A stretch of DNA of 60,024 nucleotides, filler included. It is 4 parts of 4 records of this genome, joined end to end, with 100 filler letters (N's around TTAATTAATTAA, not from the genome) between each part and the next. Parts side by side here need not be neighbours in the genome. Positions count along the whole stretch, not along the records: positions 51,587 to 60,024 come from DRR723986_17695; 3 more parts are not named here. One strand, written 5' to 3'. Each line of letters begins with the position of its first letter. Within the stretch, counting starts at the first letter, position 1. A model generated the notes under the pieces. That model ran no database searches and was not told the origin of the DNA. It saw only the letters and a program-made list of their open reading frames with translations. Below are positions 20,320 to 60,024 of this stretch, in pieces. The translations under genes and the position numbers were made by a program.

Positions 20320-20419
20320 NNNNNNNNNNNNNNNNNNNNNNNNNNNNNNNNNNNNNNNNNNNNTTAATTAATTAANNNNNNNNNNNNNNNNNNNNNNNNN
20401 NNNNNNNNNNNNNNNNNNN
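20320..20419. other. Artificial contig linker (N-TTAATTAATTAA-N)
   Basis: N runs around a six-frame stop spacer. Confidence 0.98.
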
Positions 20420-51586: not shown

Positions 51587-51812
51587 TATCTTGCTCAGCA
51601 TGCTCACGATGGGGGCTTATCTGTTTCTGCTACCCGCGTCTTGGAAGCTTTGGTTCAACGAATACAACTTCTTGTTCTGGATGGAGTGGATCGCCGTTTG
51701 GGCGTTTGCAACCGCCTGGCTGACTAAGGGGCGAGTAATCGCTGCTGAGATCGCAGTTGAACTGCTTGCGATTCCCCGCGAAGCACTAGCAGAACGATTC
51801 ACCGAGGATTAG
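51587..51812 (+). CDS. C-terminus of a membrane protein (5'-truncated)
   Basis: Hydrophobic segments ending FWMEWIAVWAFATAWLTKG. Confidence 0.55.
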
Positions 51813-51982
51813 CAGAAGCGTGCCGGATCAAGCGAAGCAACGGTGGCCACAACGAGGAGCGGAGCGACGGCAATCTATCCGTTGAAGCTTCTGCTGCACA
51901 CAATTGATATCGACGACCAAGTACCGGAACTGAGTCAAGCTCAATCTGGCCTACCCGACGCCGATGCAAGACGTCGCACTTT

Positions 51983-52393
51983 TCATGCTGCGATGTCATG
52001 GCTGACCGAGTCCAAGACTAACTGGAAAGCGTCGTTTAGCGATAGTTCATTGACGACCATCAAGTCGAACACCTGCAGCAAGCACTGATCCACCAACAGT
52101 TGTTCACTCACGAAAGCAAATTCGAGTCCACTTCTTCGAACAAGCTCGGCCTCAAGTGCTGGACGTATATCGACCACACCGCACTCGAAACATGCATAGT
52201 TGAGCTCGCATTGCGCCTTTTTAATCCACCGCCATTTAATTGGCTGCTCGTCGAGCCAGCTCACGCGCAATTGACCGAGCGGATTATCACGGACACGTGG
52301 TGAGATCTTTTTCAGCTTACCGGTTCGGGGGTAAGCCCTATCAATTCGCTCAACTAAGGGAACTGACGAAGTGATCGGGGACACAACGCTCAT
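51983..52393 (-). CDS. Hypothetical protein
   Basis: 136-codon ORF with a GGAG RBS; no family recognised. Confidence 0.45.
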   Translation of the reverse strand: MSVVSPITSSVPLVERIDRAYPRTGKLKKISPRVRDNPLGQLRVSWLDEQPIKWRWIKKAQCELNYACFECGVVDIRPALEAELVRRSGLEFAFVSEQLLVDQCLLQVFDLMVVNELSLNDAFQLVLDSVSHDIAA

Positions 52394-52710
52394 AGCAATA
52401 CTCCAATCTGCGTTACTAATTGAATTGAAAAACACGGGCTGCTACGCAGAGCAAAATCTGTGCCGGCGGGGACATAAGCCCGCGGACGTCGCTGACACAG
52501 TCGCTTCCATCGGTTCCATCCATGTCCCTAGTGCCTTCAGCTAACATCTGCCGACTGGCGGCGTTGTTTGACTGCGGGACGCGACGGAGTCTCCACCTTC
52601 TCAACTATTCCGTGATTCTACGCCCTGATCGGCACGCCATGTGCTTTCTTGAGAGCCGTTGCAGCGTTGGGGTTATGCGACGTTAGCTATTTGGGGTCCA
52701 GCGCCAAGAA

Positions 52711-52944
52711 ATGAGATCATCGGAACAGGAGCAGTTTGTGGCAGGTCCAGAACACACAACAATTTTTGACGTCGGAGACAGGAAGCATATTTGCAAGGTT
52801 CTTTACCTCGTGCCCCTTGCGCAAGGGCAGGTCGTGGATTTACCGAACGAGCCGTCCTACATTGTCGAAGCGGTGCATCTAAGAATTGATTCCAAGGGCT
52901 GCTGCGAGCAAAGAGTATCACTCGGCCGTCGCGGGGCCTGCTGA
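52711..52944 (+). CDS. Small hypothetical protein
   Basis: 77-aa ORF upstream of the epimerase; no motif recognised. Confidence 0.3.
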   Translation: MRSSEQEQFVAGPEHTTIFDVGDRKHICKVLYLVPLAQGQVVDLPNEPSYIVEAVHLRIDSKGCCEQRVSLGRRGAC

Positions 52945-52995
52945 GGGTTCTGAGACGCGCAATTCTTCGCTGGTTCCGAGACAGAGTATCCCGTA

Positions 52996-53712
52996 ATGAT
53001 CTTAGTAACTGGAAGTACAGGTTTGCTCGGCAACACGATTGTGCGACAGTTGCTGAGCGAAGGCCGCGCAGTACGAGCGTTTGTTAGGCCGACGTCAGAA
53101 TTGACGCCGCTGGCCGGTTTGGGTGTAGAGATATTGAAAGGGAGCCTTACATCAGTCGCCGACGTGCGTCATGCAGTCCAGGGTTGCGAGGCCGTCATTC
53201 ACTGTGCCGCGATGATTCACCTTGGCCGCACCAAGTTGCACGAAGCTCGCGAGGCCAATGTGTCAACGACGAAGCTGCTAGCAAACGAGCGTTCTCGCAC
53301 CGGTGCGAGGATGGTGTTTGTCTCAACTGTGAATGCTCTGGATGCGGCGCACAGTCTTGAGATGCCGCTAAACGAGCGAGAAAACGGGGTGAAGATGACA
53401 CCTTGTACTTATGTCATTACGAAACGCGAAGCAGAAGCAGTTATCTGCAGCCTTGCTTCGTGTATGCAGCTTGATTTTATAATCGTTCGGCGGGGATTCA
53501 TGCTCGGGCCTCACGATTGGAAGCCGTCCAGCGGTCGAATGTTTCGCAGTGTTGTCAGGTCACCGATCGTCGCGGCTCCACTTGGCGCTTGCAGCGTATG
53601 TCACACTCGCGATGTTGCTGAGCACCGTACAGGTGCGATTCCAGACAAATTCGAAGACGTGACCGGTCAGAGAGGGGATGAACGTCCGAAAGGGAAGATC
53701 AGGTCGAAGTAG
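52996..53712 (+). pseudogene. NAD-dependent epimerase/dehydratase (dihydroflavonol reductase/HpnA-like), probably C-terminally truncated
   Basis: GSTGLLG, VIHCAA, YVITK and LGPHD present; resemblance ends after CHTRDVA at about aa 210, versus roughly 330 aa for the family. Confidence 0.6.
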
Positions 53713-54416
53713 TCCAGACAGCAAAGCGCACCATAGTTCCCGTTGCTGTTTGCTGACCCAAGATCGCGATGCGACAGTATGCAGGCAAGTGTCGAACTTC
53801 CTCCTCGCGAATTCAGCTAGAAGCAGCATTTTGCAAACCCGTCGGAGTCATCCTGCGGATGGTGATATCCTAGACGGTAGCCTGACAAAGAGTCGACAAA
53901 GAAAGTATCGCCAAAGACAAACATGCCGCAAAGCCTTGGCATCTCGAAAAGAGAAGTCGGTCGACGAGGAACCGTTCCGACATCGCAATCGGCCTGGCGT
54001 ACTTCCCGTATGGAAGTCCGGTGAGGCCAATCCATAGTTCACGCAGAGCACTCTAGGACCTGCGCGGAAGCGTCGATCTTGCGACCGCACCACAGGCATC
54101 TGCTCAGCGCTCCGAGCTCATCGGCTGGAGACGACTCGATCTGTCAAGCGCAGACGCAAATCTCGTATTGCCTCGGTCAGATTTCCGATCAAAGCGTCAG
54201 AACCAACAATTCCTAAGCACTCCTTAGAAAGCTCACGATAGCTCTCAACAACAACTCGCTGCAATTGCTCACCTCTGAGCAGTGGGCGATAAGAACGTGG
54301 TCATCAGATCTAAACACGGACACATCAAGATGACAGTGTTTTTGCGATTCGCTATTGTCCATCGGCACTGCTCAGTTTCTCTACCCTCGAGTATCCGAAA
54401 TGAGCCGTAGTCTAAC

Positions 54417-55106
54417 TTAAGGCACAATGCTGGGTCTTGGGCTTGCTGCTGTCCGGATAATATGCCTGTTCAAATATCCTTTATGGATGTCCTCGGCGGT
54501 TAGACCAAGCTTTGAATTTGGTGAAGAAGTCTGGCCCGGTGGGGCGACCACGAGCACTGCGTTTCTCTGCCATGCCGTTTGGAAACACTGAGCCGTCATG
54601 CGGGTGTTGCCACGAAATGGATCTGCAAGGTAGACGACCCCCAAATGGTCATCGCGATAAACCACAAAGTGGTTAATGCCTTCGAGTTTGACGACCAGGA
54701 TCAGGGGAACCTTACTTTTGGTCAGTTTAGCGTACGTCAGTTCGCCGACGGTCGCGTTATATCCCATTTTTTTCGCGGCATCTTCAACGTCAGCAATGGT
54801 CAGTCCATCGGCCTCCCTATCGGCCAATTGTTCCTCGCTGAGCATTGTCTCTACTACACTAAGAACATCAGCCTCAGATACATCATGGCGCCAGTGGTAA
54901 CGCAGAAGAGTTGCCAGAGCAGCGGCACCACATGAGTAGTCTCGCTGCTGCATCACGACATTGTTTTCCCTGAGCTCTTTCCAGCTCAAGACTGGTTTCG
55001 ACATCCTGAACGAAGTGTCACGTACGCGTCCTCCCCTCGGCAGTTCTTGGGAGTAACACAGACCAGCAAGTGATGTGGCAATGTAAATAGCTAAGAGTCG
55101 TTGCAT
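54417..55106 (-). CDS. Stand-alone exported C39 cysteine peptidase, FapD-like
   Basis: Signal peptide; PVLSWKELR, QQRDYSCGAAALATLL (Cys), NHFVV (His) and LADPFRGN (Asp); no ABC domain. Confidence 0.88.
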   Translation of the reverse strand: MQRLLAIYIATSLAGLCYSQELPRGGRVRDTSFRMSKPVLSWKELRENNVVMQQRDYSCGAAALATLLRYHWRHDVSEADVLSVVETMLSEEQLADREADGLTIADVEDAAKKMGYNATVGELTYAKLTKSKVPLILVVKLEGINHFVVYRDDHLGVVYLADPFRGNTRMTAQCFQTAWQRNAVLVVAPPGQTSSPNSKLGLTAEDIHKGYLNRHIIRTAASPRPSIVP

Positions 55107-55116
55107 CGTCTTCTCC

Positions 55117-56202
55117 TTACCGTGTCCAGACTATTCCAAGCTCGCTCGACGGTGCAGTTTCAGTCAGTCCAAAGGTTACAAATGGCTCTACAATTTTACA
55201 TCGTTCTGCGATCGTAGCCGCCAACCGGACGCGCAGTGGCTCTTGGTCACTGTTGGAAAGGTTTATCCCTTCAATTTCCGTTTCGGTGATGTACGCCCCA
55301 AGAAAAGCGGTACTCAGTGTTACATGCCGGTTCACCGCGAAACCAACTCCGAAGTTGTAGTTAAGCTGGTGTCCCAGCTGAATGCGTATGTCCTGGTAGT
55401 CATCTGGCACACTGTAGATGTAACCAAGTCCGTAGAAGAGAACGACTGGGTCGATCGAACGCACTCGGAGCACGTCGGTACCGAACCGCCAAGAACCGTT
55501 GCCAAGGCCAACACTGTTTATCACAAGCGGATTTACCGGGGTGCCAGTTGGAGCGATCGCACGCATCGTCACGATTGTTGACGTACCGGTGCAAGAGTCC
55601 TGGTCGACTAGCTTCGTAACGCCAAACGTCAGGTCTCCCACCCCAACATCAGACCGGCTCTCATCACCAAACGCAGTGGCGATTTCGGTATCTGCCCAAC
55701 CAAGTGGTAGCGACGCAAATAACTGCGTCTTTTCGTTCCAGCCATAGCGCCAGCTGAGAGGCGTGAAAAAAGATCGGCGGCGTGAGTCAGCTCGCACAAG
55801 ATTCCCGCCAACAACCGCTGGGAAGTCGTATTCCTGAAGCGAGTAAACTATGCCGTAGTCAAACTGGTGCTGGCCAGCGGTCAACAGTGGCGTAACAGAC
55901 CTCAAGAATTGAGGGCCCACCTCTTCCGGCGCCTCGCCGTAGTTCTCCGCGGGCTCCGACGCACCACGGACATCGATCGCACTTGGTCCGATGGTGTCAG
56001 CAATGGTGTTGGGGGCTCTAGGCTCAGCGGGCTTTTGGAGCAGTGGGGAGAAAAAATTAGGGCGAACGCTCTTCGTTTCATCGGGCAGTGCCTGCGCGAT
56101 TGCCTTACCTGCGGGCGTTGCTGCGAGAATGAAAAAAACACATACTTGAATATTAAGAATACTGCGATGCGTACGTAGTACGGTTGAAAACAGACCGTCC
56201 AT
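55117..56202 (-). CDS. Outer-membrane beta-barrel, FapF/COG4313-like
   Basis: Signal-like N-terminus, amphipathic strands, RYG, GVGDLTFG, APTG..P, GLGNGSW, SIDPVVLFYGLGY and GVGFAVN, as seen in FapF-type barrels. Confidence 0.75.
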   Translation of the reverse strand: MDGLFSTVLRTHRSILNIQVCVFFILAATPAGKAIAQALPDETKSVRPNFFSPLLQKPAEPRAPNTIADTIGPSAIDVRGASEPAENYGEAPEEVGPQFLRSVTPLLTAGQHQFDYGIVYSLQEYDFPAVVGGNLVRADSRRRSFFTPLSWRYGWNEKTQLFASLPLGWADTEIATAFGDESRSDVGVGDLTFGVTKLVDQDSCTGTSTIVTMRAIAPTGTPVNPLVINSVGLGNGSWRFGTDVLRVRSIDPVVLFYGLGYIYSVPDDYQDIRIQLGHQLNYNFGVGFAVNRHVTLSTAFLGAYITETEIEGINLSNSDQEPLRVRLAATIAERCKIVEPFVTFGLTETAPSSELGIVWTR

Positions 56203-56292
56203 GGTCGTTGTTCCTCTTGGGCGTGACTGGGTGAAGAAGGTCGCGCAGCGTTTGCGGCTACGCGACCAGTTCGTTCTTCGAATCCCAATAGC

Positions 56293-57288
56293 TTAGAACG
56301 CAAATCCTGTCATGACCGAGAAGCCGATTAAATGCGTTTCAAGCTCACCACCGACTGCGTTGGTAACACCTACAGAATTTCCGAAGGTACCAGACGCAGC
56401 TTGGGCGATCGCGCTCCCATCGTTCGTGTCCCAATACTGGAATTCAACTCCAGCTCGTGCAAATGCTCGGCCATTGAAGCTGTCTACGCATTTTGACCAT
56501 TGCAGACCAGCACCAGCTTCCCCGATGAACATCGTCTCATCCTGTTGATCGATTGCCCCGTTCACGCTGCCAGCTGTTCCGAACGGACCAGAGAAATTTG
56601 AAATTGCTATGGCGCTCGTTTCGGCAGAGCCGAAGACTGTCGAACCTCGGGTGTTCCAGTAAGCACTAAGGCCGCTGCATGGGCGTAGGCACTTCAAGCC
56701 AGAGAGGCTAAACGTTAGTCCCGTCCCGTGAAATTCTTCACTGTTGATCGTACTCAGATTAAAAACGTCGCCATTGATCGCTCCGTAGGCCGACGCTGTT
56801 CGGTCATGATCGATTGAAGCGTGACGCACACCGAAAGTCCCGAGCAGATCCCAATCGCCTTGACGAAACTGTTTGGTCAGTTCCAAATCAATTGCGTAAG
56901 CATTGAATGAGTCTATCCCACCTAGCTCCTGCAGCTGGTTTCCAACGATCGGCGCAGGAAAGCCCTGTTGTGCTGCCTGACTCGAAAGCTCCCAGTATCG
57001 AGCCTGAATTCCAAACCCGGACTGCCTTTGCCAACCGAATGAGATTCGGGGCGCTGCAGTAAGTAGTTCAGCCGTGTCGAAAGTTGAGCCCAGTGAGATA
57101 GGGGCTGCGGCGGCCCCGGCGAGTTGGAAGCTTGAAGGAGCAACGTCGTACAGCGGAGCTAAATAAGTTGCTTCAACCCCAGCGTAGAAAGTGGAACACT
57201 GAGGGCGGCTGGTTAGGCACTGGGCGGGCAGTGCGGATGTCGACGATAGAATCGTGGCGAGCGTTAACAGAAAGATCAGGCGTTTCAT
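56293..57288 (-). CDS. Planctomycete-type outer-membrane beta-barrel (BBP7/Lpg1974-like)
   Basis: Signal peptide MKRLIFLLTLATILSSTSALPA; FYAGVEATYL, PRISFGW, GIQARYW and GVEFQYW; C-terminal Phe. Confidence 0.7.
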   Translation of the reverse strand: MKRLIFLLTLATILSSTSALPAQCLTSRPQCSTFYAGVEATYLAPLYDVAPSSFQLAGAAAAPISLGSTFDTAELLTAAPRISFGWQRQSGFGIQARYWELSSQAAQQGFPAPIVGNQLQELGGIDSFNAYAIDLELTKQFRQGDWDLLGTFGVRHASIDHDRTASAYGAINGDVFNLSTINSEEFHGTGLTFSLSGLKCLRPCSGLSAYWNTRGSTVFGSAETSAIAISNFSGPFGTAGSVNGAIDQQDETMFIGEAGAGLQWSKCVDSFNGRAFARAGVEFQYWDTNDGSAIAQAASGTFGNSVGVTNAVGGELETHLIGFSVMTGFAF

Positions 57289-57466
57289 TTTCGTTCTCAA
57301 TCCTTGAGAGGCGTATTCGTCAGAATGGTATCCTTTCACACATCCTGAGGGGCCGCATCAAGGCGATCCCCGTGAGGCTTTTCGCCCCTCACAACAGAAG
57401 CAGTTCGGTAAACCGCAAAGAGGCAAGACATTCCGGTAAACCCGTACGATCGTCGCTACTACATTC

Positions 57467-57482
57467 GCTCCCCCCGTGCCAA
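57467..57482 (-). promoter_or_regulatory. Possible sigma-54 -24/-12 promoter for the barrel/peptidase genes
   Basis: Minus strand TTGGCACG-GGGG-GAGC has exact GG-N10-GC spacing; the -12 box deviates from TTGC. Confidence 0.35.
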
Positions 57483-57490
57483 AGCATTGA

Positions 57491-57522
57491 AAAAGGGTGC
57501 TCTGTTCACACAGAGCACCCTT
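57491..57522 (-). terminator. Intrinsic terminator after the small secreted-protein gene
   Basis: 13-bp perfect stem AAGGGTGCTCTGT/ACAGAGCACCCTT ending in a T-run on the minus strand. Confidence 0.8.
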
Positions 57523-57556
57523 CGAATTGACGGTTTAAACGCTTAGGGAAGCTTTC

Positions 57557-57928
57557 CTAGAATCCACCGGCGAATGAGAAACCAGTACCGTAAACGAACG
57601 GCCCAGGGCCATTGGCTCCAGCGAAAGAAAATCCTCCCGAAAACGTCGGGTTGTTCGCAAAGTAACCATTTACGCTGCCGGAATTGTTGAAGAAGCCGTT
57701 GAACCTGGCATAGGAAACACCGAACACAATCGCTCCCTGGCCACGTACCTCAACGCTGTCTTCGCGTTCCATGACCTTCATACCGCTGAGGCCCATCGCG
57801 CTTAGCGAACTTTGGCTTACAGATTCGCCTGATGCAGCAGTGCGGAATGGATCCGCTGCTTTTGCAGATCCAACACTGGCAACTGACAGGACTGCAATCG
57901 CACATAGAGTTGTAACGATTCTCGACAT
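57557..57928 (-). CDS. Small secreted Gly/Phe/Asn/Ser-rich pre-pro-protein (candidate fibre subunit or peptide)
   Basis: Sec signal ending SAKA, pro-segment ending MEREDSVEVRGQG, then a 58-aa low-charge core containing GFSFAG twice. Confidence 0.75.
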   Translation of the reverse strand: MSRIVTTLCAIAVLSVASVGSAKAADPFRTAASGESVSQSSLSAMGLSGMKVMEREDSVEVRGQGAIVFGVSYARFNGFFNNSGSVNGYFANNPTFSGGFSFAGANGPGPFVYGTGFSFAGGF

Positions 57929-58599
57929 AGTTGTTTTCCCTGTTGTGGAGAACTCGGACGTAATTGCGAGGGACGGGCGTCTCTCGCCTCTCGGAACCGA
58001 TTAAACCCACAAATTGGAAGTAGTCAAACTAATTCCACCTATTTTCTGTGGAAACTACCCACGTCCCCCAAACAACCACGCACCAGTGAGCTAGTCACGC
58101 CCCCCCAACTATTCGCAGCTTGAATACATGCCCTTGAGATAGCGTGCCGCCTGAACGCCGTGAGATCTTGGTTGGTAGCCGTTCCAGGGACTGAAAAGAG
58201 CTTTGTCCACTCGGAGATCGCTTTAGAGCATTGCAGCGCCTTCTTCAGAAGTTATTAGATTCGCTCCATTCGGGTTTCTATTGCAACCCGCCGAATACGA
58301 GGCAGGCACGCATTGCGCGGTCAAGGCTGTTGGCGAGATCCAAAAACTCGCAACAGGCTAGACACCACTGCAACGGAAAGATCTAGGCCTTTTTGCTACG
58401 GATTCAGACCTGCGTGAAAGACTGGTCGGACTGTAGCGCGCTAAGTCGAAGGCGCAATTCGGCAGCGATGCCGAATGGCAAGTAGATTTCGAGGAAAAAT
58501 CACTCTCGTACTTCGGGTAGCAAGTTAGTCCGCGCCGTTTTCTTGGCAGCACGATCGGCACCGGTGTTTACGGGGAGACAGCCAGCGGCCGTCAGCGTC

Positions 58600-59883
58600 T
58601 TATCCGATCTGTTTGATGACATCCCTAGCTCTTTCCGCATCGCGTTCGGCATATACCTGTGTGACGTCTGCGGCAGCGTGCCCAAGTATGACCTGTGCAG
58701 CTTCAAGACCGAAGTCGCGACGGATGATCGTAGCTGCAGTATGGCGTAACTGGTTGGGGGACCATCGATGCGTCGATTGCCATACCTTTACAGCTTTCAC
58801 GCCAGAATCACCAATTCTGGCGAACCATTCCTTTTGCGTCTCACCGACTCCTTGAGCGAGTGGACCTAGTGGTGGGAATGCACGGTCGCAGGCGCGGTGT
58901 ACGGCGCGTCGATAGCTGCTCGAGTTGTAGGAATCGCTTGGAGGCCGCTCACGGCTCTTGCCGCGGCTCTTGCCTCGCCGGTTTCCGCAGGACAGTGGCG
59001 TGACACGTTTTTCCTCCTTGGCATGCAGCCAGTCTCGAACGTTTTCCTGCGGAGAAAAACAGTGGGCATTCTCATCCCGCTGCAAATAGGGTGTCAGCAA
59101 TGCCTGAGCGTCTGGACCAAGAAAGATGATTCTGTCGCGACCGCGGTAGTCCGTCTTGTGCGTGGCTGGTCGGTATTCCCAAACATCGCAAGGACGATCG
59201 ACATCGACCGGTCGGAGCCTGCATACTTCACCGGGTCGCATCCCAGTCAAAAGCTGGAGCCTGACCATATCCTGAACTATGGGCAATAGATGCAACATAG
59301 TTTGCTGGACGATTTCCACGGAAATCGGCCGAACTGGATCGGGCTCAGATGCCTCACTGCGACCCTTGCGAAGTCCCGGGACAGTCCGTAGTGTTTCGAA
59401 AATGCTCGAAGGAATAAGCTCTTCTGCAGCTGCCCACCTGAAGATACGGACAAGTTTCCGAACGTTGTTGTTAATCGTCGTACGTTTCTGCCCTCGGTCT
59501 AGCCAGGTTTGCCGAACAGCCTTCAAAGCCTTAGGACCGAACCCAGCAGCTTCAACGTCACCATAAAGCTGCCGAACGTCGCGGATTATGACTCGGTACG
59601 CGGCATTTTCGGTAGTCGGTTGGCCATTCTTGACGTAATAGGCTTTGGCGTGCTTCCAGAATGCGGCTAGGACCTCGACAACGGTAATCCCAGCCTCTTG
59701 CTCAAGCACCGAGGCCCTTCTCCCTGACGACAGATACTCGGCAATTAGCCGGTCATAAAGCATTCGACTCGCCTTCGAGCCAAACTTACCAAGATAGTGA
59801 TCGCGACCGGCCAGCGTGACAATTGCTTGTCCGCTGGCTCGGTGACGGCGATACTTCGGAACGGCCTGCGTAAGTCGCGGCAT
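58600..59883 (-). CDS. Tyrosine integrase (Planctomycete type)
   Basis: PKYRRHRASGQA N-terminus; TGMRPGE, HKT, NQLRH, LGH and TQVY. Confidence 0.92.
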   Translation of the reverse strand: MPRLTQAVPKYRRHRASGQAIVTLAGRDHYLGKFGSKASRMLYDRLIAEYLSSGRRASVLEQEAGITVVEVLAAFWKHAKAYYVKNGQPTTENAAYRVIIRDVRQLYGDVEAAGFGPKALKAVRQTWLDRGQKRTTINNNVRKLVRIFRWAAAEELIPSSIFETLRTVPGLRKGRSEASEPDPVRPISVEIVQQTMLHLLPIVQDMVRLQLLTGMRPGEVCRLRPVDVDRPCDVWEYRPATHKTDYRGRDRIIFLGPDAQALLTPYLQRDENAHCFSPQENVRDWLHAKEEKRVTPLSCGNRRGKSRGKSRERPPSDSYNSSSYRRAVHRACDRAFPPLGPLAQGVGETQKEWFARIGDSGVKAVKVWQSTHRWSPNQLRHTAATIIRRDFGLEAAQVILGHAAADVTQVYAERDAERARDVIKQIG

Positions 59884-59996
59884 GTGCTGGTCCTCCCCAA
59901 AACGGTAAGTACCGTTTTGATAATGTGGGAAAACGCCGCACTGCTCACCACGAGCAGGTATCGTAAATGCCGATTCGGCTTCAATTTAGGAAAAAG

Positions 59997-60024
59997 TCGG
60001 GGTGATAGGATTCGAACCTACGAC
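59997..60024 (-). tRNA. 3' part of tRNA-Pro (truncated at the window end); probable integration site
   Basis: Minus strand GTCGTAGGTTCGAATCCTATCACCCCGA gives a T-arm plus an acceptor strand typical of tRNA-Pro; the anticodon is outside the window. Confidence 0.8.

Follow-up and report, generated by a model that had tools for sequence, protein, structure and literature searches.

The stretch of DNA described here, further called the window, is 60,024 nucleotides long and consists of four contigs joined by runs of N (at 20320, 39123, and 51487). The last of these contigs (DRR723986_17695; positions 51587-60024, GC content of approximately 53%) carries a cassette of four genes, S, B, F, and D, all located on the minus strand. 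They are listed in Table 1. S encodes a small precursor protein, B and F encode β-barrels and D encodes a C39 peptidase. An earlier reading, made from the sequence only, had proposed exactly these four co-oriented genes, i.e., a secreted protein of 123 amino acids (aa), a barrel ending in Phe, a FapF-like barrel and a C39 peptidase with a signal peptide and a Cys/His/Asp triad. The open reading frames (ORFs) agree with this description, the signal peptides being predicted from hydropathy only: all four proteins have the hydrophobic N-terminal stretch that is typical of such peptides. That reading had also reported that an ATP-binding cassette (ABC) transporter is missing. This holds for the cassette contig, as only two other ORFs on it exceed 200 aa, one for a tyrosine integrase and one that is epimerase-like. 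The nearest relatives are found in Pirellulaceae records, and D of the window forms a supported group of four with three of these records in a quick tree.

Table 1. Features of the cassette and their positions in the window.
Feature	Position	Strand	Remark
S, precursor of 123 aa: signal peptide, leader and β-rich core	57557..57928	-	defines a so far unnamed family
Predicted Sec signal peptide of S, aa 1-24, ending in A-K-A	57857..57928	-	hydropathy
Conserved leader motif of S, aa 42-63, putative C39 recognition site	57740..57805	-	alignment of the S family
Core of S with four antiparallel strands, aa 65-123	57560..57736	-	covariation, 214 sequences
B, 10-stranded outer-membrane barrel of the Legionella porin I/OpcA/OmpT type, with long extracellular hairpins	56293..57288	-	331 aa
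Extracellular hairpin of B, aa 224-249, gapless match to hairpin 1 of the S core	56542..56619	-	profile slide
F, 12-stranded plugged barrel of the FapF/COG4313 type	55117..56202	-	361 aa
D, stand-alone C39 cysteine peptidase with predicted signal peptide	54417..55106	-	229 aa

Conservation of the Cassette in Pirellulales

The distribution of S and D was determined in an order-wide sample of 271 Pirellulales genomes, in which D-type C39 peptidases were counted at E < 1e-50. S and D are each present in 51 genomes: 49 genomes contain both, two contain S only, two contain D only and 218 contain neither (Fisher p 6e-49, kinship ignored). Both D-only genomes carry a divergent S near D, which combines the leader with an alternating Val/Lys/Asn tail and has no B nearby. 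C39 matches of ABC length form a separate, low-scoring class (E ≥ 1e-14) in 10 other genomes, none of which contains S. A class-wide sample gives a similar picture, with S and D in the same 16 of 251 genomes; 15 of these are common to the order-wide sample, and the sixteenth carries the complete cassette. In a phylum-wide sample of 301 genomes, S or D was found in the centre genome only, a result that means not found there, as this search scores few candidates per genome.

For the comparison of gene neighborhoods, 55 loci were taken from 50 of the 51 genomes with D, and D itself lies on 53 of them. In each of these 53 loci, F is adjacent to D. S is located nearby in 45 loci and B in 42, and the complete set of four is found in 41. 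Co-occurrence of the genes in other genomes, which the sequence-only reading had proposed to check, is found in this survey across Pirellulales. The incomplete loci number 12 and are mostly located on short contigs or at a contig edge. The cassette occurs in 11 gene arrangements, the commonest one having B divergent from F-D. Other gene families are each seen at 7 of the 53 loci at most, and no immunity, modification, ABC or catabolic gene recurs at them. Among the 13 loci of the closest relatives, four are collinear with the window and five have F in another order, four of the latter together with D or part of it. The remaining ones comprise one locus with S and B only and three, on short or cut contigs, where B has F alone or nothing nearby. 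Moreover, pairwise identities between loci are correlated among the four proteins D, F, B, and S (kinship ignored). The four genes thus form a conserved unit, with a clustering far beyond chance.

The Peptidase D and the Barrel F

D matches the C39 peptidase family PF03412 (E 1.4e-19) and, below the cut-off of that model, the FapD model NF058616 (E 1.4e-25). Its catalytic set, i.e., Q53, C59, H146, and D162, is intact in all 57 sequences that were aligned. A hydrophobic N-terminal stretch is present in 52 of 56 D sequences and D would reside in the periplasm. The identification of D as a FapD-like stand-alone C39 peptidase, also made in the sequence-only reading, is supported by these results. 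Two loci (L126 and L133) contain tandem duplicated C39 genes, with intact catalytic residues in both copies.

The FapF-like character of F is equally supported, both by sequence and by structure comparison. F matches the sequence of the FapF crystal structure (PDB 5o67) with an E-value of 7e-10, whereas the COG4313 channel 4rl8 is not among the matches at E ≤ 10. Against the FapF model an E-value of 6.7e-12 is obtained, with a score of 44.9 versus an equivalog cut-off of 700; FapF of Aeromonas is also under this cut-off, at 371. The AlphaFold2 model of F has a predicted local distance difference test (pLDDT) value of 71 overall and is confident from about residue 105. It superimposes on FapF (5o65) with Z 27.5 and a root-mean-square deviation (rmsd) of 2.0 over 247 aligned residues, and on 4rl8 with Z 25.0. 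F additionally matches PF13557. Across 50 sequences, both the plug segment F-L-R..L-L and the first PTG motif are conserved. The N-terminal region of F is Pro-rich and of low confidence in the model. A coiled coil was not seen in it: a crude heptad score is 0 in F of the window and in 39 of 50 sequences, with a maximum of 3.5, compared to 4.5-6 in three proteobacterial FapF-like proteins.

The Cargo Protein S

S belongs to a family that comprises 705 clusters (50% identity; matches at E ≤ 1e-3). The protein has no match in Pfam, NCBIfam or PDB. In the protein atlas, S only retrieves unnamed clusters, mostly from Planctomycetota, and the core retrieves no usable named match. The sequence-only reading had described S as a low-complexity secreted protein. 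S is indeed a small protein with a predicted signal peptide, but this description is incomplete, as the protein has a conserved leader and a patterned core of four strands.

The last residue of the predicted signal peptide, Ala24, is invariant or nearly so in the family. The leader that follows has the consensus L-x-x-M-G-L-x-G-M-x-x-M-S-D-x-E-G-x-x-V-R-G, then Q/M/K and G. A strict form of this pattern is met by 131 of 154 proteins and a loose form by 154 of 154, figures that are partly circular, as the search profile favors the leader region. The median pairwise identity amounts to 52% in the leader versus 28% in the core. Moreover, the leader fits the double-glycine register at positions -12, -11, -8, -4, and -2 (register from PMC6363468). 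D would probably cut S after aa 63 or 64. The leader tag is not present on the other cassette proteins, being found in 0 of 56 D, 0 of 55 F, and 0 of 49 B sequences.

The core has a median length of 68 aa in the family and consists for 46% of Gly, Ala, and Ser. Covariation among 214 sequences reveals antiparallel diagonals between strands s1-s2 (8.6), s2-s3 (4.9), and s3-s4 (4.9), and a parallel diagonal between s1 and s3 (5.8), with shuffled maxima of at most 3.9; the strand limits were drawn by eye and the null ignores kinship. One face of the core is conserved (2.8 bits), is of the Gly/Ala/Ser/Asn type and consists for 74% of Gly, Ala, and Ser. The opposite face is variable (1.0 bit) and often aromatic. 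Folding of the core as a four-stranded antiparallel sheet is supported by this covariation. The sequence-only reading was right that the cargo is unlike FapC: a FapC-type or curli-type motif is present in 0 of 154 S proteins, and the FapB and FapC models match none of 103 members.

S genes often stand in tandem, and a genome may have as many as 11 S matches; many genomes contain a single S gene. Longer cores are seen in the S paralogs of one clade (L113, L114, L119, and L132). In this same clade, 2-3.5 kb separate B and F, where a further component is possible. At two loci with F and D and no B nearby, a different cargo is encoded (L135:4080-4403 and L136:11028-11357). It has a leader of the same type, followed by alternating Val/Ala and Lys/Asn/Asp repeats, and is a candidate for a second class of β-rich substrates.

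The Barrel B

B counts 331 aa from its ATG codon and has a C-terminal Phe; a GTG start at 57339 would result in 348 aa. The AlphaFold2 model of B (pLDDT 88.6) has very long strands. Its match with Legionella porin I (9nh1) reaches Z 22.7, with an rmsd of 2.7 and 14% identity over 229 aligned residues, and OpcA (Z 20.1) and OmpT (Z 16.4) are matched as well. By sequence, B matches PF05150 with an E-value of 1.7e-5, slightly under the cut-off, and 11 of 52 B members match this family. Together, these matches identify B as a 10-stranded barrel whose hairpins are extracellular. The reading of B as a further FapF was rejected, as Z for FapF is only 7.4.

The B family is wider than the cassette. It is present in 122 of 271 Pirellulales genomes (E ≤ 1e-8), some of which lack the cassette. 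Of 20 further high-scoring B loci, 14 are without S, D, or F nearby and 6 have S beside B, and in a quick tree 16 orphan barrels occupy at least four separate positions among 49 cassette-linked barrels. A barrel exclusive to the cassette was consequently rejected, and the claim of the sequence-only reading that the extra barrel is lineage-specific does not stand for this Legionella_OMP-type protein. One genome (G423, L157-L159) has four close B-type barrels, which are nested among the cassette-linked barrels and are without a D or S match; loss of the cassette followed by barrel expansion is possible there. In another genome (G005), two B barrels flank D and two S genes (L156), and a second contig (L020) contains three more S-like genes.

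One extracellular hairpin of B resembles hairpin 1 of S. Residues 224-249 of B align without gaps to residues 68-93 of S by consensus, with A-G-S-[TV]-N-G-[AY]-x-A-x-G in common. When a profile of S hairpin 1 is slid along B, this is the best site, with 12.9 bits and a p-value of 0.004 (post hoc) in shuffles that preserve parity; B of the window itself scores 17 bits. The score at this site exceeds that of every site in F or D. Cassette-linked barrels (n = 49) have a median hairpin score of -1.7 bits versus -10.7 bits for orphans (n = 16; p 0.01). S hairpin 2 and the s2-s3 hairpin match B no better than shuffles do (p 0.36 and 0.30). The data hint at a resemblance between both hairpins.

Proposed Pathway and Alternative Explanations

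In the proposed pathway, S, B, F, and D would cross the inner membrane by Sec, as their signal peptides suggest. In the periplasm, D would recognize the leader of S and cut at its V-R-G end, and the core of about 60 residues would then exit through F, by analogy with FapF. Outside the cell, the core would fold into the four-stranded antiparallel sheet to which the covariation points. Subsequently, S cores could join edge to edge into a β-sheet surface structure, either a fibre or a coat, which B might hold on the cell via the hairpin that resembles hairpin 1 of S. These steps differ in strength. Export and processing of S by Sec, D, and F is highly probable. The assembly of S into a surface β-polymer is somewhat favored, and a modest preference likewise goes to the reading as a whole, i.e., export of the FapD/FapF type with its own cargo and a β-sheet surface assembly held by B. 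A role for B as anchor or template of the S polymer, close to the anchor, nucleator or receptor role given to it in the sequence-only reading, is a tentative proposal, and the S assembly could be amyloid in character. More speculative still, and doubtful, is the idea that S cores form an endless antiparallel β-ribbon or tube by translation, started and held by the B hairpin.

Several observations argue against parts of this pathway. The leader of S deviates from the double-glycine register at -7 (Gly/Ala for Leu) and at -1 (Gln/Met/Lys for Gly; PMC6363468), none of the leader models of NCBIfam and Pfam matches it, and a matrix derived from it misses the FapE-type motif in three proteobacterial loci. 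Covariation between strand 4 and strand 1 is 2.0, which is within the null, while a polymer growing edge to edge might give such a signal. As for the role of B, the hairpin window was chosen after inspection and is one of four that were tested, the other three not being significant. A profile-profile comparison by hhalign gives no homology between S and B, and cognate S-B pairs score 28.5 versus 27.4 for shuffled cores, which is hardly higher. Loops just as long are, moreover, seen in orphan barrels of the B family, which have no S, D, or F in their neighborhood.

The alternative that survives best shares export and processing with the proposed pathway and differs in its end product. A few copies of S would add strands to the hairpins of B, resulting in a stoichiometric cap, an adhesin head or an extended channel instead of a long polymer. 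One face of S has small, conserved residues, as does the inner face of the B hairpins, and both the absent signal between strands 4 and 1 and the many genomes with a single S gene fit such a complex. However, most loci have one B, whereas S occurs in tandem arrays and reaches 11 matches in a genome, which points to a subunit in excess, and the two loci lacking B still hold a leader-tagged cargo with a β-pattern. We consider such a cap unlikely.

A conserved leader preceding a variable core, multi-copy arrays and a patchy distribution are typical of bacteriocin precursors. The S cores could accordingly be read as microcin-like, Gly-rich antibacterial or signaling peptides that leave the cell via Sec and F, with B as receptor or self-protection protein. 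S has the conserved leader, a variable core of Gly, Ser, Ala, and aromatic residues, the multi-copy arrays and the patchy presence (51 of 271 genomes). Against this stand the four-strand pattern and the conserved face, which are fixed across the S family, and the 53 loci without a recurring immunity, modification or ABC gene. In addition, relatives of the integrase of the window are present at 0 of 68 other loci, and the nearest studied FapD/FapF pair exports structural fibres. A peptide of this kind is therefore rather improbable. Lastly, F as an uptake channel of the COG4313/SphA type, in a cassette for nutrient or peptide import with S as a periplasmic or surface accessory, is very improbable: the structural similarity of F to 4rl8 is nearly equal to that to FapF, F matches PF13557 and it is without the FapF coiled coil, but F is closer to FapF by sequence, a C39 peptidase adjoins it in all 53 loci, catabolic genes do not recur at these loci, and COG4313 operons are not reported to include a C39 partner (PMC6173800).

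Coming back to the proposed pathway of processing by D, export through F and surface assembly, two small proteins suffice for a direct test of its cut site, since one peptidase and one cargo family with a conserved leader co-occur almost 1:1. The cassette is a defined candidate gene set for surface structures in Pirellulales, the fibres of which are known mainly by microscopy; the description in PMC5394234 deals with Planctopirus and Gemmata, which belong to other orders. If B templates S, this would be a new way of anchoring a β-sheet polymer on the outer membrane. A ribbon started by the barrel, if true, would represent a new class of bacterial surface filaments, with Fap-type secretion and a β-barrel as nucleator. 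Its architecture would differ from that of Fap and curli, which are parallel solenoids, and some of the surface fibres of planctomycetes might be filaments of this kind.

Comparison with Known Systems

The functional-amyloid system Fap of Pseudomonas (fapABCDEF; FapF 5o65/5o67) is the closest point of comparison. FapD is a periplasmic C39 peptidase, the activity of which is required for Fap secretion; its target is unclear and FapE loses its N-terminus (PMC5557850). According to two sources, the substrate and the recognition signal of FapD-type periplasmic C39 peptidases had not been determined (PMC5557850; PMC6173800). The sequence-only reading had placed Fap mainly in Proteobacteria. This requires adjustment, as fapD-fapF pairs outside this group have already been published: fapD and fapF are co-located in five further phyla, which may include Planctomycetes (PMC6173800). 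What is new here, as far as the literature searched shows, is the combination of FapD/FapF-type export with the S cargo family and the added barrel B.

Like Fap, the cassette has a cargo that would be exported by Sec, a catalytic C39 peptidase that is predicted to be periplasmic, and a plugged 12-stranded barrel of the FapF fold with the PTG motif, and it has no ABC transporter. Unlike Fap, it is without FapB/FapC repeats and a FapE homolog was not found. The FapC model has a match in 0/4 cassette genomes, with the Aeromonas control record being detected, and a FapE homolog is found in 0/4, with the control record detected at 1.3e-11. Other differences are the missing coiled coil of F and the presence of the 10-stranded barrel B. 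Moreover, the cargo of the cassette is short, of a single type and has an antiparallel four-strand core, compared to parallel β-solenoid repeats in Fap; FapB and FapC have been described as β-solenoids (10.64898/2026.10.01.755530). By analogy, the cassette would work like Fap, yet it departs from Fap in its subunits, FapE and the coiled coil. In proteins of three proteobacterial Fap-type loci, motifs ending in R-G are similar to the S leader by eye. Judged from this visual likeness only, S may be a functional counterpart of FapE. Two loci from Cupriavidus and Croceicoccus (L037 and L038) contain C39 and FapF-like genes, flanked by secreted proteins that match no Fap subunit model. These flanking proteins show R-G-ending motifs after the signal peptide, as does the Cupriavidus barrel.

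The cassette also shares features with the export of double-glycine bacteriocins by PCAT (AMS) proteins, in which a C39 peptidase acts with a short conserved leader in front of a variable core (PMC6363468). S has hydrophobic residues at -12 and -4, Ser at -11, Glu at -8, and Gly at -2, like the PCAT leaders. Unlike these, the S leader follows a Sec signal peptide and deviates at -7 and -1, and D is stand-alone, predicted to be periplasmic and without an ABC domain. Another system with a proposed leader-cleaved structural protein is MAM of Faecalibacterium, which is suggested to form a surface lattice (PMC12184118). In the case of the putative Fil pilus of Acinetobacter, D and F weakly match FilB (NF050078) and FilC (NF050079), far below the cut-offs, and neither S nor B has a Fil match. 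A second barrel gene is likewise present in the fil operon.

B shares the 10 strands and the long extracellular extensions with the Legionella PF05150 family, OpcA, and OmpT, but differs from the PF05150 family in that its extensions are Gly/Ala/Ser/Thr hairpins. The literature searched, which covers few subscription journals, contains no link between the PF05150 family and a C39/FapF locus and no description of the S cargo family, the cassette or the pairing of the barrels.

Genomic Context of the Window

Promoter and terminator scans of the cassette remained at chance level, and no sequencing runs are listed for it. Directly upstream of the cassette, within 58600-60024, lies a gene for a tyrosine integrase of 427 aa (PF00589). 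The final approximately 30 bases of the window resemble the 3′ end of a tRNA gene, which we take to be tRNA-Pro. On the cassette contig, neither ARAGORN nor Rfam detects an RNA gene. The copy of the cassette in the window may be part of an integrated element. A general mobility of the cassette is not supported, with relatives of the integrase at 0 and tRNA genes at 9 of 68 other loci. The third contig of the window (approximately 60% GC) has no link to the cassette and ends in DUF2125, EamA, and HpcH/HpaI genes. Downstream of the cassette, in the region 51587-54400, the coding density is low. This region contains the epimerase/HpnA-like ORF (52996-53712; 238 aa), which spans only about two-thirds of the model of its family and is possibly a decayed gene.

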